From the NCBI GenBank assembly GCA_016783745.1, contig JADHVZ010000006.1:3397-67396 (forward strand): 64,000 nucleotides of DNA, written 5' to 3'. Under the pieces are notes generated by a model. That model did no database searches. It worked only from the letters and a program-made list of their open reading frames with translations, and was not told the origin of the DNA. The first letter of the stretch is position 1. Each line of letters opens with the position of its first letter. The stretch is from Candidatus Omnitrophota bacterium (GTDB taxonomy: Bacteria; Omnitrophota; Gorgyraeia; JAHIPI01). Made by a program: the position numbers and the translations under genes. Shown here one piece after another: positions 2,979 to 61,723 of the stretch.

Positions 2979-2991
2979 ATTAAAGCCTCCA

Positions 2992-3368: not shown

Positions 3369-3379
3369 GGAAACAGTTT

Positions 3380-7221: not shown

Positions 7222-7224
7222 ATG

Positions 7225-33693: not shown

Positions 33694-33785
33694 TGGTTAC
33701 GGTTCTCGGTTTTCGGTTTTCGGTTCTCGGTTCTCGGTTGCAGGATTCTTCCCCCTACCCCCTACTACCTACCCCCTACTACCTA
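33694..33785. repeat. Composite tandem array filling the whole trpB-trpA spacer: (ggtt[c/t]tc)x5-6 followed by (taccccctactacc)x2
   Basis: Seen directly; the ggttttc/ggttctc heptamer is shared with elements at 53052-53125 and 56047-56124. Confidence 0.85.
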
Positions 33786-34988: not shown

Positions 34989-35055
34989 GGCCGTAGGTTT
35001 ATAGGTTATATAGAAACTCACTTAACCGTACACCGTAAACCGAAAACCGTACACC
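34989..35055. repeat. Low-complexity element of the 'ccgtaaacc/ccgtacacc' family (aaccgtacaccgtaaaccgaaaaccgtacacc), preceded by taggtttataggttata
   Basis: Same words, in inverted-repeat form, at 56047-56124. Confidence 0.7.
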
Positions 35056-37442
35056 TAAATAATGACCAGGCTCTGCTTCTTCCCTGTTAATGGGAAAGAC
35101 AGCTTCAGTATACCGTCTTTGTGCTTAAAATTTATCTCGCTTCCGTCAAGTGAGACACTGTACGGCTTTCGTATTTCTATCAGTATCTCGCAATGACCGC
35201 CCGCGCTTCCGTGCAGGGCAAGCCTCAATTCTCTGTCCGTGCATGAAGCCTTAAGTATCTCAGCCGTGGAATACCTGATCTTCGCCCGCCTGGAAACAGG
35301 CACATTGAGCGGAAGAACATAAGAGCTCCTGTTGGGCATAAGAAGTTTATTTTCCTGCGGTATCGTGGCGGACTTATTTAGACCCGGGATCCGGAAGTTC
35401 AAAGTCACTTCATGCGGTTCGTCGTTGAAATTCGACACAAACAGGAATCCGTATTTTTTATTAGACCTCATCACAGCATGAACATCATTCACTGATGTCT
35501 TTATGCAACGCGGCAGATTAAGGATCTGCATAAAATGGTCTATCAATCCTATTTGATAATCGAGAGTATGCTTCACTGCGAACCCGAGCAAAAGCAATTT
35601 GCCTTTCTTTATCTTCTTAAGGATACCGCACGGTTTTCTGTCTCTGGTCCGCGCTACTACCCGTCTCTTTTTAGACTCAAATACCTTGATATCACCTTCT
35701 ATCAAATAATCTTTTCCGGTGACAAATACCAGATTATCATTTACCGTCTCGCCTATACTGACATCAAATTCTTTTAACAAAGACTCTTCTCTTAAGAGCC
35801 CCATATTTTTATTAGGCGCTGTGGGATTCATGATAAGCGTTCCGCCTCTTTTGACGTACTCGGCTAATTTGAGTTGTGTCGCCTGATCCATATAGTCCAT
35901 TGAAAAGACCCACATGGCGGGAATTTCCTGCAGATCCCTTATCTTCGCTCTTTCAATATCCACCAGATTATAATTATAACCATTGATCATCAGCAGCCTT
36001 GCTATTCCGTCAAAGAAGAAATTATCTCTCGCAAGAGCCATCTGGTCTATGACTGAACCTTTGAGATAACCGGTCTCATAATAAGGCGCATAGAGGCCCA
36101 TTGCAAAATCATAATTTTTCTTTGTATCCGCTATCTGACTTCCGAAGGTCTTCACGAGATCACCGACATCCTCCATAGGCTTGATCTTGGAGTTCTTTTT
36201 TCCCTTACTGTCTATGGGAGCCTGCCATTCATGGTAGGTTCCTCTAAAACCCAATCCCGGCGGATTCAGCCCCCCGCAGAACATATACGCGTTAAGGCCG
36301 TTCAGGCCGTGCCCGATTGAGTATCTCATAAGTAAATTGATATCATTAGGATATATTCTGGGCCGGTCATTCATGCCTCCTACCTGGGCCTCCAAACAGA
36401 CCCTGGGTGCGGTTTTATCGCCTATCATATTCAATCCCTCGGTCATGAGGATAGCGTCATGAAAATTTTCAAAGTTGAGATTTCTCATCTGATACGCGCC
36501 GCCAAAAATAATATGCGGCGTATATTTTATAAAATCCCTGTATTGAAGAACGGTCATCAGCCCCTGATTACCTCTGGCGCATATGTTATAGTCCCAGAAC
36601 ATCGGGATATTGGCTACGAAAGGAAGGTCGATTTTCGCGCCCTTCGCGCGCTTGGATAAAGAATTGTAGTAGCGGGCGTAAAAATCTCTATAGAAATGTA
36701 CCCAGTCCCAGCATCTTCTTACGCCTTCTTCATCCACGTCACCTTTCGGCTGCGGGATCTCCTTAAAGCTCGTATGATTCGTGTAATACCTGTCGTTAAG
36801 GGCGGATAGCTCACCGCCATAAAGCGCCTTCAGGTATTCTCCGTACATCTCGGTCGTAGCCTTATTATAATCCGCGTCACCCATGACCCAATTCATCATG
36901 CCGATCTCGTTATCCAGCTGCACCATTATCACCGGCCCGCCTTTTGTAAAAGAGTTCTTATGGATTATCGGCAGGATCTTCGAATACCACCCGGATACGC
37001 GCTCCTGAAAAACAGGATGCATATAAGAGACCATGGCCTCGTGCGGAACATTCGATCCTTTTCTGTTTTTCGCGCGCGCTTCCTGGTAATTTTCCAGAAA
37101 CCAGGGCGGGGTGCCTTCACCCTTTATCTCCGCGTTAGAAGTAGGGCCTATCCTGGCTATAAGATTAAAGCCGGCGTTTTTGACAAGCTTGATAAAATAT
37201 ATAAGATCCTTTTGAGGAGAAGTCTTACCGGTGAAATCAAACTGGCCTTCTTCATGCTCGTGCCAGGCCCACGGTATGTAAGTGCTTATAGTATTTAATC
37301 CCGTTTCCCTGGCCTTCCTCAGCCTATCCACCCATTTATCCTTCGGTATCCTGAAATAATGGATCTCGCCCGAATAGAGGAAAAAAGGCTCATTATTCAA
37401 CAGGATCTTACCGTCTTTCAATTCGATCTTATTCCTGCCCAT
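35055..37442 (-). CDS. Glycoside hydrolase family 35-like beta-galactosidase
   Basis: 795 aa; N-terminal GEIHYFRIP...GLNTISTYIPWAWHE...FDF...GP...AE...PPWFL and acid/base VQLDNEIG match the GH35 catalytic TIM barrel. Confidence 0.75.
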   Translation of the reverse strand: MGRNKIELKDGKILLNNEPFFLYSGEIHYFRIPKDKWVDRLRKARETGLNTISTYIPWAWHEHEEGQFDFTGKTSPQKDLIYFIKLVKNAGFNLIARIGPTSNAEIKGEGTPPWFLENYQEARAKNRKGSNVPHEAMVSYMHPVFQERVSGWYSKILPIIHKNSFTKGGPVIMVQLDNEIGMMNWVMGDADYNKATTEMYGEYLKALYGGELSALNDRYYTNHTSFKEIPQPKGDVDEEGVRRCWDWVHFYRDFYARYYNSLSKRAKGAKIDLPFVANIPMFWDYNICARGNQGLMTVLQYRDFIKYTPHIIFGGAYQMRNLNFENFHDAILMTEGLNMIGDKTAPRVCLEAQVGGMNDRPRIYPNDINLLMRYSIGHGLNGLNAYMFCGGLNPPGLGFRGTYHEWQAPIDSKGKKNSKIKPMEDVGDLVKTFGSQIADTKKNYDFAMGLYAPYYETGYLKGSVIDQMALARDNFFFDGIARLLMINGYNYNLVDIERAKIRDLQEIPAMWVFSMDYMDQATQLKLAEYVKRGGTLIMNPTAPNKNMGLLREESLLKEFDVSIGETVNDNLVFVTGKDYLIEGDIKVFESKKRRVVARTRDRKPCGILKKIKKGKLLLLGFAVKHTLDYQIGLIDHFMQILNLPRCIKTSVNDVHAVMRSNKKYGFLFVSNFNDEPHEVTLNFRIPGLNKSATIPQENKLLMPNRSSYVLPLNVPVSRRAKIRYSTAEILKASCTDRELRLALHGSAGGHCEILIEIRKPYSVSLDGSEINFKHKDGILKLSFPLTGKKQSLVII

Positions 37443-46671: not shown

Positions 46672-47979
46672 CTATCTTTCCCTCTCCTTCAGTAATTTGT
46701 TTGCCTTAGGAGTAGCTTCTCTTATCACTTCCTCAACATCAGCTGTCCCGTTAAAGACCAGATCCAGCTTAGGCGATAGATATAATTCGTTTACTTCACG
46801 CCATTTAATGTGAAAAGGTTCGAATACGACATGTCCTACGGCTTCATTAAGCATACCTTTATTTTTTGGCGGACTATCGCTGCCCGCAAAGTACGGGCCT
46901 AAGGCTATTGGCTTAAGGGCCGGCTGCGCCAGTCCCATTTCAGACAAAAATATTTGAGCTTTATCACTCGTCAGGGCTTTTACGATGCTCCACGCAAGTT
47001 CCGGATATTTAGTGGATTTGAGCACGCAGTAACCCGATCCGCCGGTCCCGAATTTCCTTATACCGGAAGGGCCTTTGGGAAACATGGCCACATCCCAATC
47101 AAAATCCTTTATGTTGCCAAACATAACGCTTTCCCAGAAGCCGGACTGATACATGGCAAGCTTCTGTGACATAAATAACTGCTGTGCGCCCATGCCAAGG
47201 TTACCGAATTCAACCGGGCTGGGAGAGACCTTATGTTTATTGATAAGGTCCGAGTAAAACTGTAATCCCTCTATACTTTCCGGCCTGCCCAGAGTGAATT
47301 CCCTGGGGTCTCCCACGTTATCTACTATGCTGCCGCCGTTTGAATAAACAAAATTTTGCCAGGTCCAACCGTAAAAACCGTACTGCGCCACCCTTCCGTT
47401 TTCATCCAGCTTAGTAAGCGCCTTTGCCTTGGAAAGCATATCATCCCAGGTCCAATCATCAGCAGGATACGGTATGCCGGCTTTGTCAAACAAGCGCTTG
47501 TTATAAAATACACAGGCAAATGGCGCCGTGTCTCTGGGTATGCAGTAAGTCTTACCGTCCTTAGTAAATCTCTCGATCATCTCCGGGAAAAAATCGTCCA
47601 CATTAAATTCTGTATCACTCTCTATGTAAGGCTTAAGATCCAGAAAAGCATCCATAGCCCAGAAATTCACAAATATATTTGATTCCACAAACATGACGTC
47701 CGGAGCCGTGCCGCCCGCTATTCTTATGAGCAGCTTGTTTGTGTAAGACCCGGCCGGTGTGTGCTCAATTTTAGCGACTGCTTCCGGATGGCCTTTTTGC
47801 CATTCATCGATTATCTTGTTGATTATCTCTATCTCATCCGGCCCGCCCCATATAGCGACTTTGATCACAGGCTGTTTGGAAGAAGTGCCGCATCCGGCCA
47901 TATTGAGTAATGAAAAGACTGTAATAAGGGTAAGTATAAAAAAAACAACTGGCTTTTTATTGATGCTAAATCTGCTCAT
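46672..47979 (-). CDS. Carbohydrate ABC transporter substrate-binding lipoprotein (family 1 extracellular solute-binding protein)
   Basis: 435 aa; lipobox MAGCG; sugar-SBP fold composition; no permease/ATPase genes adjacent. Confidence 0.8.
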   Translation of the reverse strand: MSRFSINKKPVVFFILTLITVFSLLNMAGCGTSSKQPVIKVAIWGGPDEIEIINKIIDEWQKGHPEAVAKIEHTPAGSYTNKLLIRIAGGTAPDVMFVESNIFVNFWAMDAFLDLKPYIESDTEFNVDDFFPEMIERFTKDGKTYCIPRDTAPFACVFYNKRLFDKAGIPYPADDWTWDDMLSKAKALTKLDENGRVAQYGFYGWTWQNFVYSNGGSIVDNVGDPREFTLGRPESIEGLQFYSDLINKHKVSPSPVEFGNLGMGAQQLFMSQKLAMYQSGFWESVMFGNIKDFDWDVAMFPKGPSGIRKFGTGGSGYCVLKSTKYPELAWSIVKALTSDKAQIFLSEMGLAQPALKPIALGPYFAGSDSPPKNKGMLNEAVGHVVFEPFHIKWREVNELYLSPKLDLVFNGTADVEEVIREATPKANKLLKERER

Positions 47980-48055
47980 TTTTTACCTCACATTTATTTC
48001 TATGTGAATTTTCGATATAAGCAAAGAGGTAAGTATTATAACATAATCATTGAAA

Positions 48056-48676
48056 TTAGTCAAGAGCCTTAATAATGCTTATTATCCGCTCCATAAGCTT
48101 TTTATCCTTTTTACCCGGGATTAGCTCTATGGAGCTGGATATGTCTACTCCATAAGGCCTTACAGCTTTTATAGCTTCCTCTATATTATATAGAGAGAGG
48201 CCCCCTGAAAGTATCATGGGTATGCCCAGGCTCCTGGCTTTAAGCGCAAGGCCCCAGTCAAAAGTCTTTCCTGTGCCGCCGTAAGCCTCTTTAGAGTAAG
48301 TATCCAAAAGGCAGGCGAAAATATCCTTATAATCAGTTATGGGCTTGAGGCTTTTTTCGTCTTTGATCCTGAACGCCTTTATCACCTTCCACCGCAACAG
48401 CTTAGAACAAAAAAGCGGGTTTTCATCGCCGTGAAGCTGGAGGGCGTCTAAAGAACAATTTCCGGCAATTCTTTCAATATTAGACAGGTCTTCATTCACG
48501 AAAACGCCGACTTTTAGAACGCTTCCCTTGAGCCCCTTTATGATGGATCTGGCTTTTTTCGGATCCACTTTTCTGGGGCTTTCAGCGAATACAAAGCCGA
48601 TCGCGTCAGCGCCTAAGTCCACAGCGCCTTGCGCGTCTTCCTGATTGGTTATACCGCATATCTTGATCTTGGTCAT
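48056..48676 (-). CDS. trpF: N-(5'-phosphoribosyl)anthranilate isomerase
   Basis: 206 aa; MTKIKICGIT...ADAIGFVF. Confidence 0.9.
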   Translation of the reverse strand: MTKIKICGITNQEDAQGAVDLGADAIGFVFAESPRKVDPKKARSIIKGLKGSVLKVGVFVNEDLSNIERIAGNCSLDALQLHGDENPLFCSKLLRWKVIKAFRIKDEKSLKPITDYKDIFACLLDTYSKEAYGGTGKTFDWGLALKARSLGIPMILSGGLSLYNIEEAIKAVRPYGVDISSSIELIPGKKDKKLMERIISIIKALD

Positions 48677-48703
48677 TATTCTATTGGATAGCTGGATACT
48701 GAT

Positions 48704-48734
48704 GTTACGAGACGTTACGAAAGATTACGTAACC
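48704..48734. repeat. 'gttacgag' family element (gttacgagacgttacgaaagattacgtaacc) in trpC-trpF spacer
   Basis: Direct gttacga words followed by inverted cgtaac; related to tandem array 26772-26820. Confidence 0.75.
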
Positions 48735-48743
48735 TCAATATAA

Positions 48744-49523
48744 TTACCCTATTAACTCCCTCATCTTTTCTCCTATGTCCTCGCTGCGCATCAGGGCTTC
48801 GCCTACAAGCACCGCGTTGATCCCGAAAGACCTTAAATATGAGATATTCTCCTTTGATTTTATGCCGCTTTCGGAGACTATCACCTTACCGCCCGGGATC
48901 ATCTTTAAAAGGCGGGGTGTGGTCTTTATGTCGACCTTAAAGGTATGCAGGTCTCTATTGTTTATGCCTATTATATCACACCCTGAATCCAGCGCTTTTT
49001 TGACGTCTTCTTCGCCATGCACTTCGACAAGAAAATCAATGGAATACCGGCTGCCTATTTCCAGAAATCTTTTTATTTCCTCGACCGACAGCAGGTCCGC
49101 GATCAAAAGCGCGGCGTCTGCTCCCGCTAAAACCGATTCGTATATCTGATATTCGTCTATTATAAAATCTTTTCTTAAAATAGGCAGGGATATACCCTTC
49201 CTTATTTCTTTTAAATATGACAGCTTACCCTGGAAAAATTTCTTGTCTGTAAGCACTGATATAGCCGATGCGCCATTTGCCTGGTATACAGAAGCTATCT
49301 TGACAGGATTAAAATCTTCTCTTATCACTCCGGCTGAAGGGGACGCCTTCTTCACCTCGGCTATAAGATGGATCTTGTGGGGTTTGCTTAGTGAGTTTTT
49401 AAAAAGATTCTTTGGGCGGGGCGCTATACCCTCAAGCCTCGCTATCAGATCCTCCTGAGGGGCCTTTTTCCTGGATCTTTCTACTTCCTTTCTCTTCGTT
49501 TCTATTATCTCGGTTAGGATCAT
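48744..49523 (-). CDS. trpC: Indole-3-glycerol phosphate synthase
   Basis: 259 aa; IAEVKKASPS motif. Confidence 0.9.
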   Translation of the reverse strand: MILTEIIETKRKEVERSRKKAPQEDLIARLEGIAPRPKNLFKNSLSKPHKIHLIAEVKKASPSAGVIREDFNPVKIASVYQANGASAISVLTDKKFFQGKLSYLKEIRKGISLPILRKDFIIDEYQIYESVLAGADAALLIADLLSVEEIKRFLEIGSRYSIDFLVEVHGEEDVKKALDSGCDIIGINNRDLHTFKVDIKTTPRLLKMIPGGKVIVSESGIKSKENISYLRSFGINAVLVGEALMRSEDIGEKMRELIG

Positions 49524-50533
49524 CTGCCGCTCTCGTCTATCAGCTTGCGCAATGTCTCAAGCGCCTTTCCGGAGCTTACGCATTCCGCTGCTATCTTTAC
49601 GCCTTCCCTGAAATCGCCTGCCTTGCCGGCCATATGTAAAGCGGCGCCGGAATTTATCAACACCATATCAAGGCGCGGGCCTTTATCCTTTCCTTCCAGT
49701 ATCTCCAGCACAGCTTTCTTGTTATGTTCTCTACTCCCGCCTCTTATATCTTCCAGGGAACCTTCTTTAATGCCAAAATCTGACGGTTCGATAGTGTGTG
49801 TCTCGACCTTCCCGTCCTTAAGTTCCGACAGCCTGGTTTTTCCTTTAATTGATATCTCATCCAGGCCTTCATATCCATGGACTACAAATGCCCTTTCAGA
49901 ACCCAGTTTATTGAGGGCCTCCGCCATTACCTCCGTCAATTCAGCCTTAAAAACGCCGAGCACCTGCATCTTCGCGCCGGCGGGGTTGGAGAGCGGGCCC
50001 AGAATATTAAAAATAGTCCGCGTCTTGAGTTCACTTCTTATCTGTGCCACATTTTTCATCGCGGGATGAAAATTCTTAGCGAATATAAATCCTATGCCTA
50101 TCTTTTCAATAAGTTCAGCGACCTTCTCAGGCGGAATATTTATATTAACACCGAGCTCCATCAGTATATCGGCGCTTCCGCACTTACCGGTAAAGGATAC
50201 ATTGCCGTGCTTGGCCACTTTCATGCCGCAGCCGGCCAGAATAATGGCAGAGACCGTAGAAACGTTTATATCATTAAACGGCGCGCCGCCTGTGCCGCAT
50301 GTATCGATAAGATCCTTTTTAGGCACGGAGACTTTCGTCATTTTGTCCCTCATGATCTTCGCTGCCGCGGCGATCTCCCCGGGACTCTCCCCCTTCGCTT
50401 TAAGGGATAAAAGGAACTCCTTTACATCATCACTTCCGGCTTCTCCGTTCATTATCTCGCTAAAAACGGCTTCCATCTCGGCGCTATCGAGATCGACTTT
50501 CTTTGACAATACACGTATGGCTTCTTTTATCAT
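49520..50533 (-). CDS. trpD: Anthranilate phosphoribosyltransferase
   Basis: 337 aa; DTCGTGGAPFNDINVST motif. Confidence 0.9.
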   Translation of the reverse strand: MIKEAIRVLSKKVDLDSAEMEAVFSEIMNGEAGSDDVKEFLLSLKAKGESPGEIAAAAKIMRDKMTKVSVPKKDLIDTCGTGGAPFNDINVSTVSAIILAGCGMKVAKHGNVSFTGKCGSADILMELGVNINIPPEKVAELIEKIGIGFIFAKNFHPAMKNVAQIRSELKTRTIFNILGPLSNPAGAKMQVLGVFKAELTEVMAEALNKLGSERAFVVHGYEGLDEISIKGKTRLSELKDGKVETHTIEPSDFGIKEGSLEDIRGGSREHNKKAVLEILEGKDKGPRLDMVLINSGAALHMAGKAGDFREGVKIAAECVSSGKALETLRKLIDESGR

Positions 50534-50542
50534 TCTAACTCC

Positions 50543-51109
50543 CTATTTGATCTGCAGAAAATTATTAAGGATCTTTTTCCCTTCGCCGGTCAATATCGAT
50601 TCAGGGTGAAACTGTACGCCGTATATATGATGGTCCTTATGCTTTAAGGCCATTATCTCTTTTTCCTTTGTCTCGGCAGTGATTAAAAAGCAATCGGGAA
50701 GGGAACTTCTTTCCGCGATAAGCGAATGATATCTTGTAGCTTCAAAAGGGTTTTTTACACCTTTAAATATATCTCTTCCGTCGTGCATAATGGCCGATGT
50801 CTTACCGTGCATCAGTTTTTCCGCCCTTACTATGACTCCGCCGAAGACCTCCGCTACCGCCTGATGGCCCAGGCACACCCCAAGGATAGGTATTTTACCC
50901 GCGAAGGCCCTGATGGCAGGCTCTGATATACCGGCATCCGAAGGATAGCCCGGCCCGGGAGATATTATTATCCGCTCCGGATCCAGTTTTTCCATATCTT
51001 TAAGATCTATCTTGTCATTACGATAGACTTCAAGTTCCGCCCCAAGCTCACCAAGGTATTGCACCAGGTTATACGTAAACGAATCATAATTATCTATTAC
51101 CAATATCAT
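50543..51109 (-). CDS. trpG: Anthranilate synthase component II (class I glutamine amidotransferase)
   Basis: 188 aa; GVCLGHQ catalytic Cys motif and HPES. Confidence 0.85.
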
Positions 51110-51110
51110 C

Positions 51111-52577
51111 TTACGCTTCCTCTATGGCCTTTATCAGCGCCATTGCCTTATTCAACGTCTCCTGATATTCCTTATCCGGATCGGAATCAGCCACTATTCC
51201 CGCGCCCGCCTGGATATACGCCTTGTTCTTCTTGACCAGGATAGTCCTTATAGTGATACAACTGTCTATATTCCCGGAAAAACTGAAATAGCCGACACAT
51301 CCTGAATAAGTCCCGCGCTTCAGATTTTCGAGCTCATCAATGATCTCCATAGCTCTTATCTTAGGGGCGCCTGTCACAGTGCCCGCCGGAAACGATGCCC
51401 TTACCACATCATATATGTTACTGTCCTTTGACAATCTGCCCGTGACATCGCTGACTATGTGCATGACGTGGGAATACTTCTCCACCTTCATCAGTTCGCC
51501 TACGCGCACACTGTTAAACCTTGATACCCTTCCAACATCATTCCGGCCAAGATCCACTAGCATGATATGCTCGGCCCTCTCTTTTGGGTCCCCCAGCAGC
51601 TCTTTCTCAAGCCTGCTATCCTCGCTCTTGTTTCTTCCTCTCGGCCTTGTACCCGCGATCGGCCTTAACTCTATTTTGCCGTCTTCACATCTTACCATTA
51701 TCTCAGGGGATGAACCGATAAGCTTGATGTCTTTGAATCTTAGATAATACATATAAGGCGAAGGATTTATAGAACGCAGCTGTCTGTATATACTGAAGGG
51801 GTCTTTTTTTCCAAGATCGGCTTCCAGTCTTTGAGATAGAACTACCTGTATGATGTCCCCGTTCTTTATATACTCCTTTCCTTTTCTTACGATATCGCCG
51901 AAAGAATTTTTTGTAAAATTCGATCTTATCTTAATTTTGCGGTTTACGGTTTGCGGCTTACGGTTTACTTTCGTGTTCTTCAGAAGCGTTTTTTCTATCT
52001 TAGCTATCTTCTTCAGGGCCTCGCTGTACGCCGCTCGCGGGTTGCGCTTCACATGGACGTTTGAGACTATCTTTATCTTATGCATAATATGGTCGAATAT
52101 CAGAAGCGTGTCGGTAAGTACAAAAATGCAGTCCGGCACTTTAAGATCGTCCGGATTCCTGTCAGGCAGTCTTTCAAAAAACCGAACCATATCATAACCG
52201 ATATAGCCGACAAGGCCTCCGCAAAAACGGGGCAGCCCCTTGATACTTACAAACTTAAACTGAGACATCAGATTTTTTATTTCTTCAAGCGGATCCGAGT
52301 CCGCCTTATAGCGCCTGAGCTTCTCACCCTCCCTTATCTCCACATCCATTCCCTTGCTCCTGAATACCAGTGAAGGATTTGACCCTAAAAAAGAGTACCG
52401 CGCTATTTTTTCTTCACCCTCTACGGACTCAAGAAGATATGAATAATCTCCGGAGTCTATTTTTAAAAAAGAAGATACCGGCGTCTCCAGGTCAGCGCTT
52501 ATTTCCTTATATACGGGAATGACGTTCCCTTTTTTTGAGAGACCGATGAATTCTTTTTTACTCGGATATATCATCAA
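51111..52577 (-). CDS. trpE: Anthranilate synthase component I
   Basis: 488 aa; chorismate-binding C-terminal domain ([10 protein letters not shown]). Confidence 0.9.
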
Positions 52578-52954
52578 TACACCTTGCCAGGATCAAAGAC
52601 TTTCTCTTCTACTGTTTCCAGTCCGCCTTCACCCGTAGCGCGCCTGTAGTAGCATGTAAAGTAGCCCGCATGGCAAGCGGCGACTTTTTGTTCGATCTTA
52701 AGGAGCAGTGACTTTCCCTCGCAATCCATAAGCGCTTCCTTGAGTATCTGGATGTGACCCGAGGTCTCGCCTTTCATCATCAGCCTGCTCTTGGACCTGC
52801 GAAAAAGATACACCTTGCCTTCCTTGAAAGTCATCTCAAGCGACTCCTTGTTCATATAGCATAGCGTCAGCACCTTGCCGGAATCACTATCCTGAATAAC
52901 AGCAGGAATAAGTCCGTCATCGTTAAATTTTAGTTGTTCAATAAATTTGTCCAT
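52574..52954 (-). CDS. hisI: Phosphoribosyl-AMP cyclohydrolase (monofunctional HisI)
   Basis: 126 aa; LIPAVIQD...MNKESL...GETSGH motif; stop overlaps trpE start by 4 nt. Confidence 0.85.
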   Translation of the reverse strand: MDKFIEQLKFNDDGLIPAVIQDSDSGKVLTLCYMNKESLEMTFKEGKVYLFRRSKSRLMMKGETSGHIQILKEALMDCEGKSLLLKIEQKVAACHAGYFTCYYRRATGEGGLETVEEKVFDPGKVY

Positions 52955-53051
52955 GTTTGCTCCTTAGGTAATGATGATATCCGCTCGGTCGCTTAACAAG
53001 GATTCCACACATGTTAAATGTGCTCTCGAATCGTTTGTTATTTCGCAGAGA

Positions 53052-53125
<74 letters not shown>

Positions 53126-53159
53126 AACATGAATTTGCCAAATAAGCTTACTGTTAGTA

Positions 53160-53287
53160 AATCACAAATAACAAATTACAAATAACAAACAAATAACAAG
53201 CACCAAATTCCAAACACATTGTTTTGAATTTTGAATTTGAGATTTTGAATTTGTTTGTGATTTGTTATTTGAAATTTGTTATTTCCG
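53160..53287. repeat. AT-rich dyad element built from 'caaataacaa' words and inverted ttgttatttg words
   Basis: cacaaataacaaattacaaataacaaacaaataacaag...ttgttttgaattttgaatttgagattttgaatttgtttgtgatttgttatttgaaatttgttattt. Confidence 0.75.
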
Positions 53288-53323
53288 TATTTTATGTAAT
53301 TAACACGTATTTCACTTTTTATT

Positions 53324-54088
53324 TCAAATTCGGACAATAACCCCTTTATCACGCAAGTATTCTTTCGTTTCCTGTATCGTATATTCCTTAAAATGAAAGA
53401 TCGATGCGGCGAGGGCCGCGTCAGCCTTGCCTTCTGTCAGCACTTCGCGCATGTGTTCTATATTGCCGCATCCGCCTGAAGCTATGACGGGAATGTTTAC
53501 GGCCTCGCAGATACTTCTCGTCAGTTCGATATCGTAGCCGTCCTTTGTGCCGTCAGCGTCCATGCTTGTAAGAAGGATCTCACCGGCGCCCAGATCCTCC
53601 ACCTTACGGGCCCACTCTATAGCGTCTATCCCCGTCGGAGTCCTGCCGCCGTTAACATATATCTCCCACTTCGCGCCTTCATCCTTTTTTCTCTTCGCGT
53701 CTATCGCCACCACTATGCACTGGCTTCCGAATTTATCCGAAGCCTCCTTCACGAACTCCGGCCGCTTGACAGCCGAAGTGTTAATGGATACTTTATCACA
53801 GCCCGCATTGAGCAGGTCTCTTATATCATCAATATCTCTTATCCCGCCCCCGACCGTAAACGGCATAAACACGCATTTTGCCACACGCTCGACTACATCT
53901 ATCATGATCTTGCGCTTCTCATGAGAAGCCGTTATGTCCAGAAACACAAGTTCATCGGCACCTTCATCATTATAGACCTTTGCCTGCTCTACGGGGTCTC
54001 CGGCATCGCGCAATTGGAGAAATTTTACGCCCTTTACCACTCTACCCTCTTTCACATCAAGGCACGGGATTATTCTTTTTGCAAGCAT
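53324..54088 (-). CDS. hisF: Imidazole glycerol phosphate synthase cyclase subunit
   Basis: 254 aa; RIIPCLDV... Confidence 0.9.
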
Positions 54089-54801
54089 ATTGAAATAGCC
54101 TCCTTTAGATCAAGCGCGCCCTCGTAAAGCGCCTTCCCCACTATTACGCCGTACAGATTCTTCCTGTCGAGAGCTTTAAGTCTTTTTATATCATCTAATG
54201 ACGATATTCCGCCGGCGGATATTACTGAAATATTGACCTTGCTCAAAAAATCATCCAGCCCGTCAAGATTCGGGCCGCTCAATGTACCGTCCACGGTTAT
54301 ATCCGTGTATATGACCGCGAAGGCCCCGAGGCCTTCTACTTTCTTTGCCAGATCGATAGCCTTTACAGTCGACGCCTTAGTCCAGCCTTGAAGCATTACA
54401 AGACCGTCTCTGGAATCGATCGATACGATTATTTTCTCTCCGTATTTATTTATGGCATCCTTTACAACGTCGACCTCTTCCACGGCCTTACTCCCCAAAA
54501 CCACCTTTGAGGCACCGGATTTAAAAGCTCCGCTAATGTCTTTCTCGCTTCTAAGCCCGCCGCCAAGCTCAACGGGTATGCCGACTGCTTTTACGATTTT
54601 CGCGACCGATCCCGAATTCTTCGGCTTACCGGCCAGAGCGCCGTCCAGATCCACTATATGCAGTGTACTTGCCCCCTGATCCTGCCAGTTTTTCGCGATC
54701 CTCACCGGATCATCGGAATAAACCTTTACCTGCTGGTAATCTCCCCTTGTTAAACGCACTACCTTTCCGTCCTTCAGATCGATGGCCGGTATTATCTGCA
54801 T
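54070..54801 (-). CDS. hisA: 1-(5-phosphoribosyl)-5-[(5-phosphoribosylamino)methylideneamino]imidazole-4-carboxamide isomerase
   Basis: 243 aa; [17 protein letters not shown]. Confidence 0.9.
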
Positions 54802-55406
54802 TATAACCTCATAAAATTCTCCAGAAACTTTAATCCCGCTTTCTGGCTTTTCTCGGGGTGAAACTGGACAGCGTACAGATTCTCATCCCAGACCATGGAG
54901 GCAAAATCCCCGCCATAGTCAGTAGCGGCCGCGACTATGGCGCTGTCTTTCGGCCTTACATAATAAGAATGCACAAAATAAAAAAATGAATCCTGCTCAA
55001 TACCGTTAAAAAGAGAACATCCGCTTTTTTTTATCTTTACCTGATTCCATCCTATCTGCGGCACCTTGATGCCTCCTGAGGAGAATTTGACTACATCTCC
55101 TTTAAGGATACCCAGGCCTTCGCATCCGCCGCCTTCTTCGCTTCTCTCAAAAAGCAGCTCATACCCTAAGCATATTCCGAGATATGGCTTTTTTCTCTTT
55201 ATCTCGTCCTTAAGCGGCTCGATAAGGCCCAATCGTTTAAGGGCGTTCATCGCGTCCTTAAAAGCGCCCACTCCGGGTAGTACTATCTTAGCCGCCCCGC
55301 TCAAGTCCGCGCCCTTCTGGGTGATCACGACATCGCCACCTAAATATTCCAGGGCCTTAGATACGCTGCCTAAGTTGCCCATCTCATAATCAATAACAGC
55401 TATCAT
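54801..55406 (-). CDS. hisH: Imidazole glycerol phosphate synthase glutamine amidotransferase subunit
   Basis: 201 aa; MIAVIDYEMGNL...GICLGYELL (catalytic Cys). Confidence 0.9.
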   Translation of the reverse strand: MIAVIDYEMGNLGSVSKALEYLGGDVVITQKGADLSGAAKIVLPGVGAFKDAMNALKRLGLIEPLKDEIKRKKPYLGICLGYELLFERSEEGGGCEGLGILKGDVVKFSSGGIKVPQIGWNQVKIKKSGCSLFNGIEQDSFFYFVHSYYVRPKDSAIVAAATDYGGDFASMVWDENLYAVQFHPEKSQKAGLKFLENFMRL

Positions 55407-56014
55407 TCGTCCGCGATTATCCCTTTTGTGGATGGAATTTCTTTTCTTCTGGGGTCTATCTGAGTAGCATGGTCAAGGGCCACGCCAAATGCCTTGAAAA
55501 CCGCCTCAAGCACATGGTGCAGATCACTTCCTGTAAATATCTCAACATGCAAATTTATGTTAAGCTTTTTAGCGAAACTGTCAAGGAAGTCTAATCCGTC
55601 ATTAAACGTATAACCCTTTTCCTCGCCCAGCGCCGGTATGATTGTCTGAGGAAAATGTTTTTCAAACGCAAACCGGTTGCTGATGTCCACCACCACCTTT
55701 GCCCTTGCCTTATCCATTGGGATTTCCGAAGAACCGAAACGTTTGATGCCCTTACAATCCCCCAGCGCTCTTTTAAAGGCCATGCCCAAAGCAATGCCTA
55801 TATCCTCATTAGTGTGGTGCATATCCACATTTAAATCGCCCGTCGCCTTCAGCTCAAGATCAAATAGCCCGTGGAAGGTAAACAATTCCAGCATGTGATC
55901 AAGAAAGCCTATACCGGTCTTTATGTCGGAATCCCCATTACCGTCTAAAACCAGTTTGCCGGATATATCAGTTTCTTTTGTCTTTCTTTGTATTTCAGCG
56001 GTCCTTGGTTTCAT
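55403..56014 (-). CDS. hisB: Imidazoleglycerol-phosphate dehydratase
   Basis: 203 aa; metal-binding HH/E motifs (HTNEDIGIALG, HHVLEAVFKAFG). Confidence 0.9.
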   Translation of the reverse strand: MKPRTAEIQRKTKETDISGKLVLDGNGDSDIKTGIGFLDHMLELFTFHGLFDLELKATGDLNVDMHHTNEDIGIALGMAFKRALGDCKGIKRFGSSEIPMDKARAKVVVDISNRFAFEKHFPQTIIPALGEEKGYTFNDGLDFLDSFAKKLNINLHVEIFTGSDLHHVLEAVFKAFGVALDHATQIDPRRKEIPSTKGIIADE

Positions 56015-56046
56015 GGATTGACCTTTCTTGACATATTTTTTAGGTT

Positions 56047-56124
56047 AACGGTGTACGGTTTTCGGTTTACGGTTTTCAAAATCCCACGGTTGTTCCGTAA
56101 ACCGTACACCGAAAACCGTAAACC
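56047..56124. repeat. Dyad element of the 'ccgtaaacc/ggttttc' family: aacggtgtacggttttcggtttacggttttc-[aaaatcccacggttgtt]-ccgtaaaccgtacaccgaaaaccgtaaacc
   Basis: Near-perfect ~30-bp inverted arms in hisD-hisB spacer. Confidence 0.85.
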
Positions 56125-56125
56125 T

Positions 56126-57346
56126 TCACTTAAACCTCACCTTGATCGATTCCAGATGCTTGGGAAGGCCTTCCATCGCCGCGAGCCTCTCCAGGCTTCC
56201 GCGTGCCTTCTCCAGCCCTTTTTTTGTATAGCTTATTATGTGCGAGCTTTTTGTAAAATCACTCAGCCCCAGTCCTGAGAAAAACCTCGCGGTCCCGCCT
56301 GTGGGTAGTACATGAGAAGGTCCGGCGACATAATCCCCTACGGCAGTAGGTGAATATGAACCTATGAATATAGCGCCCGCGTTCCTTATCTTCTTTATGA
56401 CTTTCTTAGGGCTTCTTATCTGGATCTCAAGGTGCTCAGGAGCCAGATCATTGATGGCATCCACCGCCTCATCGAGATTCTTCGCTAAGATGATATACCC
56501 CTGCTCTACTTCCTTCTTCACTGTCTTCGCCAGCTTTTTTGAGGTAGTCACAAGCACAGAAAGCCCGCCGTAATGTTCGCCCTGAGCAAGAAGATCCGCC
56601 TTTACATAGTCAAAATTCGCGTGCTGGTCGGCGAGCACCACTACCTCGCTGGGGCCGGCTATCATATCTATGCCGCAATAACCGAAAACCTGCCTCTTCG
56701 CCTCAGTCACGTATTGATTCCCGGGGCCCACTATCTTGTCGACTTTCGGAATAGTCTTTGTGCCAAAAGCCAGCGCGCCGATAGCCTGAGCTCCGCCGAT
56801 CTTGTATATCTCATCCACTTTCAAGAGATTCGCGACTACTAATATGTGAGGGTCAACGCTCTTATATTTATTAGGAGGCGTCGCGAGCGCCACTCTTTTT
56901 ACTCCGGCAAGCCTCGCCGGCAGCACCGTCATATAAACGCTTGAAATAAGCGGCACTGTTCCGCTTGGCACATATACGCCGACGGAATCAAGCGGCTGAT
57001 ACTTTTCCCCCAGCACTACACCGTCGTCATCTTTTATTTTCCAGGACTTTCTGATCTGCTTTTTGTAGAATCTGCTTATATTATCTATGACAAGTTTAAG
57101 ATTTGTCACGAAATCCGGGCTTATATCCTGATATGCGCCGTTTGTCTCACTTTCGGATACTCTGAGTTCCTTAGGAGCCAGCTTCACCTTGTCGAATTTC
57201 CTGGTATATCTTAAGATAGCGTCGTCTCCTCGCAGCCTTACGTCTTCAAGTATCTTTTCGACACTCGCGGCTACTCTTTTATTTTTCGTAAAATTGCGAG
57301 AACATAATCTTTCGTATCTTTTACCCGTAACTTTTATAAGTCTCAC
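56126..57346 (-). CDS. hisD: Histidinol dehydrogenase
   Basis: 406 aa; conserved zinc/NAD-binding core. Confidence 0.9.
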   Translation of the reverse strand: MRLIKVTGKRYERLCSRNFTKNKRVAASVEKILEDVRLRGDDAILRYTRKFDKVKLAPKELRVSESETNGAYQDISPDFVTNLKLVIDNISRFYKKQIRKSWKIKDDDGVVLGEKYQPLDSVGVYVPSGTVPLISSVYMTVLPARLAGVKRVALATPPNKYKSVDPHILVVANLLKVDEIYKIGGAQAIGALAFGTKTIPKVDKIVGPGNQYVTEAKRQVFGYCGIDMIAGPSEVVVLADQHANFDYVKADLLAQGEHYGGLSVLVTTSKKLAKTVKKEVEQGYIILAKNLDEAVDAINDLAPEHLEIQIRSPKKVIKKIRNAGAIFIGSYSPTAVGDYVAGPSHVLPTGGTARFFSGLGLSDFTKSSHIISYTKKGLEKARGSLERLAAMEGLPKHLESIKVRFK

Positions 57347-59991
57347 TTTTCAAGCTCCTCCCGCACTACATCGCCCGCCTTCTCCAGCGCCTCGTCAAGT
57401 TTAGTCATATCCTTGCCTCCGGCCTGCGCGAAATCAGCCCTTCCTCCGCCTGAGCCGCCCACTATTTGAGCTATTTTCTTAATAACATCGCTCGCGCTGA
57501 CTTTATCCGTGATCTCTTTGCTGACGGCGCACACAAGGGCCACTTTACCTTTGACTTCGGATCCGAGGACAATGATAGACGCTCCTATCCTGTTTTTTAT
57601 ATTGTCGGTCATAGTCCTCAATGAACCGATGTTCATATTCTGAAGCCTGGAAGAGATCACCTTGACGCCGTTTATCTCCCGTGAACCCCGGATCAACTCA
57701 TCTATATTCATGGATGCGCGCCCGCTTTGAAGGTCAGAGACCTCTTTCTCAAGGCTTCGTATCTTTAATGCGGCGTCTACCGCCGCCTTGACTACATCTT
57801 TCGGCGATGTCTTAAGGGCTAAAGCCACATCGCTCATAATATCCTCATCTGATTTTACGCTTCGATACGCGCCCCTGCCGGTAAGCGCTTCTATACGCCG
57901 TATCCCGCCGGCTATAGAGCTTTCGCTCGTGATGCGGAAAAGCCCGATCTCACCTGTCGAGTCCAGATGAGTGCCTCCGCATAGTTCTTTCGAGTAATCC
58001 CCGACGGAGACCATACGCACACTCTTGCCGTATTTCTCCCCGAAAAGGGCAATAGCCCCCTTCTTTTTTGCCTCTTCAATCTTTAATTGCTCGCCTTTTA
58101 CTTTTATGTTTGCCCTCACAAGCTCATTTACGAGCCCTTCTATTCTGTCGAGTTCGCGTTTTCCCGCTGACTTAAAGTGTGTGAAGTCGAATCTTAACCT
58201 GTCCCTGGCTACAAGCGATCCGGACTGCTTGACATGCTTGCCCAGGACCTCTCTAAGCGCGTAATGAAGCAAGTGAGTCGCCGTATGATTGCGCGCTATA
58301 TCCAGACGTGAATCCCTGTCGACTATAGCTTTGACCTTACTCTTTTCGCTTATGCTGCCTTTGAGGACCTCGCAAATATGCACTATAATGCCCCCGGCCT
58401 TCCTGGCGTCATCAACCCTTACCTTTACTTTCTTGCTGATAATGACCCCGGAATCACCGATCTGCCCTCCGGCTTCACCATAGAAGGGAGTCTTATCCAA
58501 TATGAGCTCTATTTTTTCGCCTTCTTTTGCCACTTTTACCCTTTTCCCCCTTGCAACGATCGCCGTAACTGCCGCATCTGATCCACAAGTCTTATGGCCG
58601 GTAAAGTCTGTGGGCTTTAATGCCTCTGACAGCTTCTTAAGCGCATCCTCATCTCTTGAATTATCGAATATCGAAGACTTAAGTTTGCTCTTTGATCTGG
58701 CCAATTTTCTCTGCTTTTCCATTGCCTTCTCATACCCCTTTTTATCTATTGAGAGGCCTTCTGACTTAGCAAGCTCCTCGGTCAGCTCTACCGGAAATCC
58801 GTATGTATCATATAATTTAAAGGCATCTTCACCCGAAAGCTCGCTTTTGCCGCTCTGTTTTAAATCCTCGATAATACTCTCAAGCACTCTTGTGCCTTCT
58901 TCAAGGGTATTCTGAAATCTTTTTTCCTCATTCAGGATCACATCCGCTATGCCCTCTCTCATCGTCTCAAGGGCCGGATAGGGCTCCCTCATGACCTTCG
59001 CCACTGACGGAACAAGTTTATACAAAAACGGTAGTCCTATACCAAGCTCTTTTCCGGTCCTGAAGGCCCTTCTTATGAGCATCCTCTCTACGTATCCTCT
59101 TCCCTCATTCGAAGGCAAAATACCGTCGGAGATCATAAATGAGACGGCTTTTATGTGGTCCGCTATCGCCTTGACGCGCGGATCATCATGGGCACATTCA
59201 CTTCCGGTGAGATCCCTGATCACTCCGGTAATAGGCGTAAACAGGTCTGTCTCAAAATTATTGGACACACCCTGCATCACGGCTGCCACTCTTTCAAGCC
59301 CCATTCCCGTATCTATATTTTTACTCTTTAAGGGTTTAAGCTTATTTTTGCCGACTCTGTTAAACTGCGTGAATACCAGGTTCCAGACCTCCACAAACCT
59401 ATCGCAGCCGCATGAAGGTTCGCAATCCTCGCCCTTATTACATCCCGCATCTTTCCCCTGATCGTAAAATATCTCGCTGCAGGGCCCGCAGGGCCCGTTA
59501 GGCCCTTCTTCAGGGGCGTTTGCCGGCCAGAAATTATCATCCGCGCCGTAGCGCTTTATTTTATGTTCAGGGACCTTTATTAGATCCCTCCAGACTTCAT
59601 AGGCTTCTTCATCGTCTTTGTAAACGGAGACCCATAATCTCTCCGGCGGAAGCTTAAGCTCCTTTGTCATAAATTCCCAGCCCCATTCAATAGCTTCCTT
59701 CTTAAAATAATCCCCGAAAGAAAAATTGCCGAGCATCTCGAAGAAGGTGTGGTGCCCGGCTGTCTTTCCGACATTATTCAAGTCACCCGTCCTGAGACAC
59801 TTCTGACAGGATGTAGCGCGCTTAAATGAGATATTGATGCCCATGAACTGCTCCTTGAACTGGTTCATGCCGGCACCGGTGAAGAGTACGGAGGGGTCAT
59901 TAGCGGGAACTAATGAATCGCTCGCGACTACCTTATGCTTTTTTGATTTAAAAAACTTAAGATATTTAAGTCTGATCTCGTCTGCTGTCAT
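57343..59991 (-). CDS. alaS: Alanine--tRNA ligase
   Basis: 882 aa; class II core, editing domain HxxxH/CxxxH, C-terminal DHHA1-like domain. Confidence 0.95.
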   Translation of the reverse strand: MTADEIRLKYLKFFKSKKHKVVASDSLVPANDPSVLFTGAGMNQFKEQFMGINISFKRATSCQKCLRTGDLNNVGKTAGHHTFFEMLGNFSFGDYFKKEAIEWGWEFMTKELKLPPERLWVSVYKDDEEAYEVWRDLIKVPEHKIKRYGADDNFWPANAPEEGPNGPCGPCSEIFYDQGKDAGCNKGEDCEPSCGCDRFVEVWNLVFTQFNRVGKNKLKPLKSKNIDTGMGLERVAAVMQGVSNNFETDLFTPITGVIRDLTGSECAHDDPRVKAIADHIKAVSFMISDGILPSNEGRGYVERMLIRRAFRTGKELGIGLPFLYKLVPSVAKVMREPYPALETMREGIADVILNEEKRFQNTLEEGTRVLESIIEDLKQSGKSELSGEDAFKLYDTYGFPVELTEELAKSEGLSIDKKGYEKAMEKQRKLARSKSKLKSSIFDNSRDEDALKKLSEALKPTDFTGHKTCGSDAAVTAIVARGKRVKVAKEGEKIELILDKTPFYGEAGGQIGDSGVIISKKVKVRVDDARKAGGIIVHICEVLKGSISEKSKVKAIVDRDSRLDIARNHTATHLLHYALREVLGKHVKQSGSLVARDRLRFDFTHFKSAGKRELDRIEGLVNELVRANIKVKGEQLKIEEAKKKGAIALFGEKYGKSVRMVSVGDYSKELCGGTHLDSTGEIGLFRITSESSIAGGIRRIEALTGRGAYRSVKSDEDIMSDVALALKTSPKDVVKAAVDAALKIRSLEKEVSDLQSGRASMNIDELIRGSREINGVKVISSRLQNMNIGSLRTMTDNIKNRIGASIIVLGSEVKGKVALVCAVSKEITDKVSASDVIKKIAQIVGGSGGGRADFAQAGGKDMTKLDEALEKAGDVVREELEK

Positions 59992-60004: not shown

Positions 60005-60448
60005 TCACTTGGCCTGGTGCATTTTTTTGATGAGGATATTGAATTTGCCTGCCAGGTCGTTTACGGAATCATTCTTTCTGAAATGAAGAAGATCCACCTT
60101 CTCTCCCTTCACAAGCTTATCGATGGTCTCTTCCATTTTATAGACAGGGCCCGCGATATGATGCGAAAACCTTATCCCTATATACGACAAAAGGATCGCC
60201 GTTATTACAACAAGGGAGGTCAACGCGTGGACCGAAAAACTGAGCGTGCCCTGAATATCGACATCCGCGATCATTGTCTCACCCATAATACGCTGCATAG
60301 CGTAAAGATAGGTCTTGTTTACTATATATAGCGAGCTTCCGAGCAATACGATCGGAATGATCGCCAATAACAGTAGTAGCACTACAAACTGTAGCTGGAT
60401 CCGCTTGTTTACCAAATAATGTGTACGCCTGTTCCATGGTATCATCAT
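60005..60448 (-). CDS. Small membrane protein: two TM helices followed by a HAMP domain, no output domain
   Basis: 147 aa; HHIAGPVYKMEETIDKLVKGEKVDLLHFRKNDSVNDLAGKFNILIKKM resembles a HAMP linker. Confidence 0.55.
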   Translation of the reverse strand: MMIPWNRRTHYLVNKRIQLQFVVLLLLLAIIPIVLLGSSLYIVNKTYLYAMQRIMGETMIADVDIQGTLSFSVHALTSLVVITAILLSYIGIRFSHHIAGPVYKMEETIDKLVKGEKVDLLHFRKNDSVNDLAGKFNILIKKMHQAK

Positions 60449-60522: not shown

Positions 60523-61551
60523 TTACACCATCTGGTTTCTTATCTCTTTTTCTATTTTTTCAAGCACCTTCGGGTTTTGCTTGAGAAATAAGCGGGCATT
60601 CTCCCGTCCCTGGCCTATCTTTTCTTCTCCGAAAGCTATCCAGTTGCCGGTTCTTTTAAGAATGCCCATGCTTTCGGCCGCATCCAGAACGCCTCCGGTG
60701 CGGGAGATGCCTTCATCAAACATTATGTCGAATTCCGATTTCCTGAATGGCGGGGCTACTTTATTCTTGACCACATTCGCGCGGACCCTTGAGCCCACGA
60801 TCTCATCACCTTTCTTAAGTGAACCTATTCTTCTGAGATCGATCCTGACCGAAGAATAAAATTTCAAGGCGCGGCCTCCGGTTGTGGTCTCCGGATTGCC
60901 GAACATGACACCTATCTTCATCCTTATCTGGTTGATGAATATAACGCAGGTCTTTGATTTGCTTATACAGCCTGTGAGTTTTCTAAGCGCCTGGCTCATC
61001 AATCTGGCCTGAAGCCCCATGTGAGACTGGCCCATCTCGCCTTCGATCTCAGCTCTTGGGGTAAGGGCCGCTACAGAGTCAACTACTACAACATCAACAG
61101 CATTGCTGCGGACAAGGGTCTCGGCTATGTCCAGCGCCTGTTCCCCTGTATCAGGCTGGGATATCAATAACTCATCAAGATTAACGCCGATTTTCTTAGC
61201 GTAAGCAGCGTCGAAGGCGTGTTCAGCGTCTATGAAAGCGGCCTGGCCGCCCATTTTTTGCGCCTGTGATATTATGGACAATGTAAGAGTTGTCTTGCCG
61301 CTGGCTTCAGGCCCGAATATCTCTGTGACCCTGCCCCGCGGTAAACCGCCGACGCCTAACGCCATGTCCAGAAGCGCGGTTCCGGTAGGAATGCTGGGGA
61401 CATTAACCTTAAACCCATCACCTAACCTCATAATGGAGCCTTTGCCAAACTGCTTCTCGATCTGATTAATGGCCAGGCCCAGCGCTTTAGTCTTATTCTC
61501 TTTTTCGTCCTTTTTATCCTGAACCTCTTTGACCTCTATGACTTTGACCAT
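60523..61551 (-). CDS. recA: Recombinase RecA
   Basis: 342 aa; GPEASGKTT Walker A, L1/L2 loops. Confidence 0.95.
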
Positions 61552-61723
61552 GTAAACACCTCCTAATTTGTCTTAATAATATTAGACTGTTATTATACAT
61601 CCCTGCTAACTTTTTGTAAAGTGTATTATTGGGCATTTCAGCTCATATGCATCACCTCCTCACCTATATATACGTTTGAAACGGCGATTTCTTACATTAT
61701 TTTTTAAAAAAATACGCAAAGGC

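Follow-up and report, generated by a model that had tools for sequence, protein, structure and literature searches.

Gene content of the array

We analyzed a 64,000-nt stretch of contig JADHVZ010000006.1 from a Candidatus Omnitrophota bacterium (the window), in which genes for histidine and tryptophan biosynthesis form one co-directional array on the minus strand. Gene identities were assigned with NCBIfam equivalog models and Pfam scans, and coordinates were taken from a listing of open reading frames (ORFs); the genes, spacers and repeats of the array are all given as read on the minus strand. Their order is recA–orf147–alaS–hisD–(111-nt dyad)–hisB-H-A-F–(369-nt double dyad)–hisI–trpE-G-D-C-F. 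A first-pass annotation of this DNA had named the same co-directional series from alaS to trpF, and the family models bear it out; recA and orf147, upstream, also belong to it.

The alaS gene (alanine-tRNA ligase; 57343-59991; TIGR00344, 965 bits) overlaps hisD (56126-57346; TIGR00069, 488 bits) by 4 nt. NCBIfam models further identify hisB, which encodes the imidazoleglycerol-phosphate dehydratase only (55403-56014), hisH (54801-55406) and hisF (53324-54088), while hisA (54070-54801) scores 268 bits on TIGR00007 against a cutoff of 229; from hisB to hisF, the successive overlaps are 4, 1 and 19 nt. The hisI gene (52574-52954; NF000768/NF002747; PF01502) encodes a monofunctional phosphoribosyl-AMP cyclohydrolase of 126 aa without a HisE domain, and trpE (51111-52574, with the longest ORF reaching 52577; TIGR00564, 593 bits against a cutoff of 517.7) encodes an anthranilate synthase component I of 487 aa. 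They are followed by trpG (50543-51109), trpD (49520-50533) and trpC (48744-49523), all assigned by NCBIfam models and the last two overlapping by 4 nt, and by trpF (48056-48676; NF002298, 233 bits against a cutoff of 215), the final gene of the compact array. Only three spacers within the array exceed 15 nt: 111 nt between hisD and hisB, 369 nt between hisF and hisI, and 67 nt between trpC and trpF. No hisG, hisC or hisE was seen among the ORFs examined.

We rejected a bifunctional HisA of the PriA type because of the model scores and because trpF is present. On the hisA-trpF model TIGR01919, HisA reaches 172 bits, under the cutoff of 306, and by these scores it is a monofunctional enzyme.

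The hisI–trpE junction and its conservation

At the junction between hisI and trpE (52572-52585), a Shine–Dalgarno-like (SD-like) sequence, AAGGTG (52585-52580), precedes the hisI stop codon TGA (52576-52574) and the trpE ATG (52574-52572), and the minus-strand letters across it read ...GGCAAGGTGTATTGATGATATATCC... The longest trpE ORF starts at a TTG at 52577, which gives a TTGA overlap of 4 nt with hisI. One codon further on, the in-frame ATG at 52574 gives a TGATG overlap of 1 nt, where the A of the start codon is the final base of the hisI stop codon and the AAGGTG motif sits 5 nt upstream, inside the 3′ end of hisI. Gene callers on independent assemblies pick this ATG, yielding the 487-aa protein, and the TrpE proteins of relatives align from residue 1, with the ATG conserved among them. 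Consequently, the true trpE start is most likely the ATG at 52574. The first-pass annotation had described an ATGA-type overlap of 4 nt; the overlap is real, and is present with either choice of start, but its form is most likely the 1-nt TGATG.

We then retrieved 80 TrpE-anchored loci as a conservation sample and compared the window's proteins with them by tblastn. A TrpE comparison with 185,579 species genomes gave Candidatus Omnitrophota metagenome-assembled genomes (MAGs) as the top matches, with identities of 57-66%, and a HisI identical to the window's occurs in metagenome contigs only. The first-pass annotation had proposed a survey of hisI–trpE adjacency in related genomes, and the adjacency recurs widely: hisI lies directly upstream of trpE in 51/80 loci and hisF does so in 3/80, together 54/80, and the complete colinear series alaS-hisD-B-H-A-F-I-trpE is found in 29/80. 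The remaining 26 loci, without his genes upstream, come from other phyla (Armatimonadota/Fervidibacter, Nitrospinota, Nitrospirota, Poribacteria, Desantisbacteria, Thermodesulfobacteriota and others), from unlabelled or unclassified MAGs, or from contigs cut just before trpE. In L017, L019 and L070, hisF adjoins trpE with gaps of 5-12 nt and no hisI in between; therefore, the joining of his genes to trpE survives even without hisI.

The spacing at the junction is also short. Among 52 relatives, hisI and trpE overlap in 19, are separated by 0-25 nt in 18, by 26-150 nt in 13, and by more than 150 nt in 2; the two genes thus overlap or lie within 25 nt of each other in 37/52, and an SD-like motif is present at the junction in 32/52. 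The closest relatives found are L207 and L208, which share 78-79% HisI identity with the window and have the same gene order; in both, the junction sequence AAGGTGTATTGATGATATATCC is identical. Two hallmarks of a coupled junction, a same-strand overlapping stop and start and a ribosome-binding sequence within the upstream gene, are found here, and trpE translation is probably coupled to that of hisI.

Across relatives, the median gap is between -4 and 19 nt at every junction of the array except hisA-hisF, where an extra gene in many relatives raises it to 44 nt. The spacing between alaS and hisD has a median of -4 nt (31 relatives), and the gap between hisF and hisI has a median of 8 nt and a maximum of 216 nt. 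The comparison therefore shows what is expected of an operon, a co-directional order with short gaps that is conserved between distant genomes. The extra gene in many Omnitrophota encodes 150 aa with a peptidoglycan-binding domain (PF01471; for example, L026 8454-8906) and is associated with hisA-hisF gaps of ~460-750 nt in many loci; it is absent from the window.

What follows trpE is far more variable. Counting the 46 his-linked loci that have at least 1.5 kb of downstream sequence, trpG follows trpE in 16, while in 30 the array ends with trpE, the other trp genes being elsewhere; in the two of these that were checked closely, L023 and L026, rpsP, yajC, secDF and similar genes come after trpE. 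An uninterrupted trpE-G-D-C-F-B-A series occurs in L009, L018, L021, L022, L073 and L086. Because trpE is the last cistron in most genomes, without trpGDCF behind it, it stands at the end of an alaS–his operon that is conserved. By gene order, the conserved core is alaS–hisDBHAFI–trpE, and the linkage of trpE is closer with the his genes than with the remaining trp genes. The first-pass annotation's view of hisI as the first cistron of the trp operon does not survive this comparison, given the 8-nt median between hisF and hisI in relatives and the usual position of trpE at the end of the alaS–his array. We found no description of his–trp linkage in Omnitrophota in the literature searched, and a recent survey of 176 complete genomes of the phylum notes no more than that both pathways are complete (bioRxiv 10.64898/2026.06.07.730766).

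Repeat-filled spacers and transcription of the array

Tandem 7-nt units make up most of both large spacers, where a loop separates a left array of such units from a right array that is complementary to it. The hisD|hisB spacer (56015-56125) contains one such dyad with 31-nt arms, which begins 1 nt past the hisD stop codon and has the layout (TTTACGG-type)n, loop, (CCGNAAA)n; its minimum free energy is -40.8 kcal/mol (z = -3.4). The hisF|hisI spacer (52955-53323) contains two dyads, one A/T-rich (arms 53159-53214 and 53229-53284) and one built from CGGTTCT/CCGAAAA units (arms 53057-53082 and 53099-53124), with the hisI Shine–Dalgarno sequence TAAGGAG at its 3′ end and a folding energy of -106.9 kcal/mol (z = -6.9). 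The repeat elements that the first-pass annotation had placed at these two junctions are thus present as one and two dyads, respectively.

In the closest relatives, the corresponding gaps are 10 nt (L207) and 24 nt (L208) between hisF and hisI, and 10 nt (L207) and 19 nt (L208) between hisD and hisB. Because these gaps are so short, the repeats are recent, species-specific insertions or expansions within a compact operon. Similar arrays or dyads with 7-, 8-, 10- or 15-nt units occupy the window's spacers hom|tRNA-Pro, pgsA|ABC, lepA|pgm and rpe|M50, as well as trpC|trpF, trpB|trpA and GH35|trpB, and period-7 arrays, which TRF detects in the window, are common in related loci too. Several unrelated unit families coexist in the window. 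One (CCGYAAR)x4.7 array even lies inside trpE (51936-51968), in a variable linker (aa 203-213) whose length is unchanged with respect to homologues. Judged by this distribution, the hairpin repeats are recent, genome-wide filler and not conserved regulatory parts of the operon. The first-pass annotation had pictured a fused his/trp unit punctuated by internal hairpins; the fused unit is still the best reading, but the hairpins are species-specific arrays that fill unrelated spacers. Nor are the spacers copies of a multi-copy composite mobile element, as just the heptamer arrays recur and the remaining spacer sequence is unique.

We next consider the regulatory signals. Promoters were sought with a crude match to a sigma-70-like consensus, scored out of 12. 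The sole strong consensus promoter upstream of the array lies upstream of recA (61592-61620, minus strand; TTTACA-17-TATAAT, 11/12), and the consensus scan found no plausible housekeeping promoter for alaS. The first-pass annotation had suggested promoters inside the repeat regions as a target, and the scan returned no minus-strand match of at least 9/12 in either the 111-nt or the 369-nt spacer. A terminator scan found no intrinsic terminator in either spacer, and the sequences 3′ of the dyads, CUAAAAAAU and GUCUCUGCG, contain no U-tract. The first-pass annotation's statement that no leader peptide, T-box or TRAP site is visible agrees with three scans that all came back empty. Rfam gave no relevant match to a T-box or other known leader (whole window at gathering score; 47.9-57.5 kb at E ≤ 5), returning just tRNA-Pro and meaningless miRNA-like matches on hairpins; no spacer holds a small ORF rich in Trp or His; and no array of at least five (G/T)AG triplets occurs anywhere in the window. 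HisI contains no Trp codons. The TrpE sequence has an LLESX10S motif, which we take to be the tryptophan-feedback binding motif.

Taken together, we propose that Omnitrophota carry a phylum-wide alaS–hisD-B-H-A-F-I array in which trpE is a translationally coupled downstream cistron, with the whole co-transcribed; we assign this reading a probability of about 0.65. A fused his/trp unit is the best reading because hisI and trpE are tightly joined and conserved, and because there is no leader, T-box or TRAP-type site. One ancestral transcription unit would have extended at least from alaS to trpE and would here continue to trpF, with trpG-D-C-F behind trpE in this lineage and, ancestrally, trpB-A as well. 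A promoter upstream of alaS, orf147 or recA would most likely drive transcription of the whole array as one unit. Ribosomes that end hisI translation at UGA would re-initiate at the overlapping AUG of trpE, or the AAGGUG within hisI would recruit them there, and the output of anthranilate synthase would thereby be bound to the expression of the his operon. Control of the pathway would then probably be exerted on the enzyme itself, by way of the TrpE feedback motif, in addition to global controls, which is plausible since there is no amino-acid-specific leader and TrpE keeps LLESX10S. The spacer hairpins may act in a REP-like manner, as barriers that stabilize transcript segments or as sources of partial polarity; because close relatives do not have them, any such effect would be incidental rather than designed.

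Several considerations weigh against this proposal. Co-transcription and coupling are both drawn from spacing and conservation. The absence of promoter matches in the spacers carries little weight, because the same scan also misses a plausible alaS promoter. A strongly folded, untranslated gap of 369 nt could give polarity, or non-canonical or Rho-dependent termination, and the strong Shine–Dalgarno sequence of hisI fits an independent upstream transcript start equally well.

These points lead to the best placed of the alternatives, which we nevertheless judge unlikely: that the insertion of repeats split the ancestral operon, so that the hairpins end transcription after hisF and a promoter in the 369-nt spacer drives a separate hisI-trpEGDCF unit, which would match the first-pass annotation's placing of hisI at the head of the trp operon. 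The gap is well beyond usual within-operon spacing (in relatives, a median of 8 and a maximum of 216 nt), and its hairpins are very stable (-107 kcal/mol, z = -6.9), but a U-tract follows neither dyad, and many other co-directional gene pairs, trpB|trpA and hisD|hisB among them, are separated by dyads of the same kind. If transcription ended at every such dyad, a further promoter would be required for each downstream gene. Likewise, hisI has the strong TAAGGAG and the A/T-rich repeat contains many weak -10/-35-like hexamers, yet no match in the spacer attains 9/12 on the minus strand, though consensus promoters are detectable elsewhere in the lineage.

Quite improbable, in our view, is that the adjacency is an inherited gene order without shared regulation. 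In that case, alaS, the his genes and trpE would each be expressed from promoters within coding regions, and the overlap would have arisen neutrally as the genome became compact. The array does tolerate foreign genes, as is shown by the unrelated gene with a peptidoglycan-binding domain that many relatives carry between hisA and hisF, and alaS is a housekeeping gene that is not expected to track the demand for amino-acid biosynthesis. Several 10/12 promoter-like matches lie within hisD, hisB and trpD, but the number of internal promoter-like matches is just modestly above that of shuffled sequence (34 found versus 22.5 ± 4.4 expected). In addition, the hisI–trpE junction has been kept at TrpE identities of 57-66%, even in genomes where the rest of the trp genes are no longer nearby, which is hard to explain without selection on linkage.

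The window has five loci with at least three tandem CCGNNNN units, and each of them is within or next to a his/trp gene: in the hisD|hisB spacer (56045-56122), in the hisF|hisI spacer (53048-53126), inside trpE (51936-51963), upstream of trpB (35026-35053) and in the trpB|trpA spacer (33696-33737). The antisense array upstream of trpB is complementary to the sense array downstream, and the two could pair across the whole trpB ORF. That (CCGNAAA)n/(TTTNCGG)n arrays are cis-elements of a his/trp regulon, bound as RNA by an oligomeric protein as in TRAP, is very improbable despite a naive chance estimate of ~0.001-0.002 for this 5/5 enrichment, which was spotted post hoc and with 3/5 loci within 4.2 kb of each other: the arrays are absent at these junctions in the closest relatives, the exact (CCGAAAA)3CCG occurs in at least 120 metagenome contigs with almost none near his/trp genes, so that (CCGAAAA)n is rejected as a general his/trp signal, and further families of heptamers, octamers and decamers recur at unrelated genes of the window. 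The clustering of CCG arrays is probably due to chance or local spread, because close relatives are without them and the metagenome copies are not linked to his/trp genes.

Further observations concern the behavior of such arrays. The other assemblies of this species, at 99.8-100% identity, gave no information on changes in repeat copy number. In separate short-read assemblies of the organism, contigs end precisely at array edges, at 53047 (L002/L004/L006), 53107 (L003) and 53284 (L005); in L005 (JACKQG010167805.1), unrelated glycosyltransferase genes are joined to the array at 53284, probably a chimera or tangle caused by the repeat. In some relatives, heptamer arrays lie in frame within genes (L020 9256-9320 and 17219-17250; L034 9285-9314 and 17437-17466; L024 3592-3665), the sites being a variable HisF loop after 'AIDAK' and one shared position of a PdxA homologue. 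The HisF and PdxA-homologue arrays of one genome are built from a unit specific to it, GTTCAGA/GGTTCAG for L020 and GTACAGA for L034, and encode VQSSEFRVQS-like peptides; the use of one unit by both genes of one genome suggests copy-paste or concerted evolution. The metagenome contig L205 carries (CCGAAAA)n arrays of ~12-17 units at 1384-1499 and 7224-7304, in opposite orientations and several kb apart, one of them directly following a recA homologue with 59% identity to that of the window.

Flanking genes, precedents and significance

Upstream of the array, recA (60523-61551, minus strand; TIGR02012, 536 bits) is followed by orf147 (60005-60448, minus strand), which has hydrophobic stretches but no family match and ends 13 nt ahead of alaS. 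We rejected orf147 as a RecX, both for want of a family match and because L207 carries orf148 together with a separate recX between recA and alaS (2523-3442); the window has orf147 alone there, and no recX. The distance between recA and alaS ranges from ~500 to 2000 nt in relatives, and the linkage to recA therefore looks looser.

Downstream, trpB (33786-34958; TIGR00263, 629 bits) and trpA (32893-33693; TIGR00262, 277 bits) are co-directional with the array on the minus strand, ~13 kb from trpF and beyond a carbohydrate-utilization island (46672-47979 through 35055-37442). The island holds genes for an ABC sugar-binding protein and for GH94, GH2-like and GH35 enzymes, along with several ORFs without a family match and a GH2-like/TPR fusion. 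A sugar-binding protein gene also lies 3′ of trpF in L208; consequently, the island is common to the window and this closest relative. A sigma-70-like promoter with an extended -10 element (48035-48063, minus strand; TTGACT-17-TGTTATAAT) overlaps the trpF stop codon and is conserved in L208 as TTGACA-17-TGATATAAT; from its position, this predicted promoter is the start of the next unit, the sugar-utilization island.

The first-pass annotation regarded co-regulation of the two pathways as unusual, but there is a precedent in Mycobacteria, as in other Actinobacteria, where the his and trp operons lie next to each other (PMC5445326; PMC13055916), an arrangement that accompanies the loss of trpF and a bifunctional PriA. 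As in Actinobacteria, the window has his genes (hisD…hisF, hisI) followed by trpE and further trp genes, so that two pathways consuming phosphoribosyl pyrophosphate (PRPP) are chromosomally linked; unlike them, it has a trpF and a HisA that scores as plain HisA. The Mycobacterium tuberculosis cluster presumably has hisC as a member, and unrelated genes separating hisI from trpE. By comparison, hisI and trpE overlap in the window, alaS leads, and hisC is missing from the ORFs examined, as are hisG and hisE.

The aromatic supraoperon of Bacillus subtilis has the order aroFBH-trpEDCFBA-hisC-tyrA-aroE, with its trp genes under the control of TRAP and an internal leader. The supraoperon concept is discussed in PMC1173090. 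Here too, a trp block lies within a longer co-directional unit of mixed pathways that includes histidine-pathway genes, but its partners are alaS and hisDBHAFI in place of aro, tyrA and hisC, and there is no TRAP site. On the scale of single junctions, UGAUG and AUGA stop-start overlaps give translational coupling, as at trpE-trpD and trpB-trpA of Escherichia coli. The hisI–trpE junction resembles these in its 1-nt TGATG overlap and in the SD-like sequence within the upstream gene; it differs in that the genes belong to two pathways and that the coupling is predicted.

For the repeats, the nearest comparison is to the heptameric repeats that are over-represented in bacteria and intergenically variable, such as the heptanucleotides of the cyanobacteria Calothrix and Nostoc and GGGNATC in Xanthomonas (PMC4692102). 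The window's arrays share with these their tandem 7-nt intergenic units, in at least three copies, and their variation between close relatives. REP/BIME elements are intercistronic hairpins of enterobacteria, and the window's arrays, paired as dyads, likewise give intercistronic hairpins inside an operon. Unlike known heptamers or REP, they have complementary left and right arms and many unit sequences in one genome, they have no REP consensus, and in some Omnitrophota relatives they occur in frame inside genes. We know of no RAYT transposase for these heptamer arrays.

The arrangement is accordingly best described as a biosynthetic super-operon of mixed pathways, which is a known kind, and we have no evidence of a new regulatory device: the locus offers no new regulatory mechanism, and the hairpins behind the odd look of the region are recent simple-sequence expansions. 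That trpE is kept as the last, often overlapping, his cistron across the phylum, even in the 30/46 loci whose other trp genes lie elsewhere, might mean that the making of histidine is functionally tied to the first committed step towards tryptophan. We hold this to be rather improbable, with a frozen gene order as the alternative; if true, the tie could be, for example, a fixed-ratio output that keeps the use of PRPP and glutamine in balance, or an interaction, physical or regulatory, between TrpE and the His enzymes. The alaS-hisDBHAFI-trpE series provides a clean, phylum-level synteny marker for Omnitrophota, of use for studies of operon evolution and for the annotation of MAGs in this uncultured phylum. 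It is a second independent case, after Actinobacteria, in which histidine and tryptophan genes are chromosomally joined, here to the point of overlapping stop and start codons.

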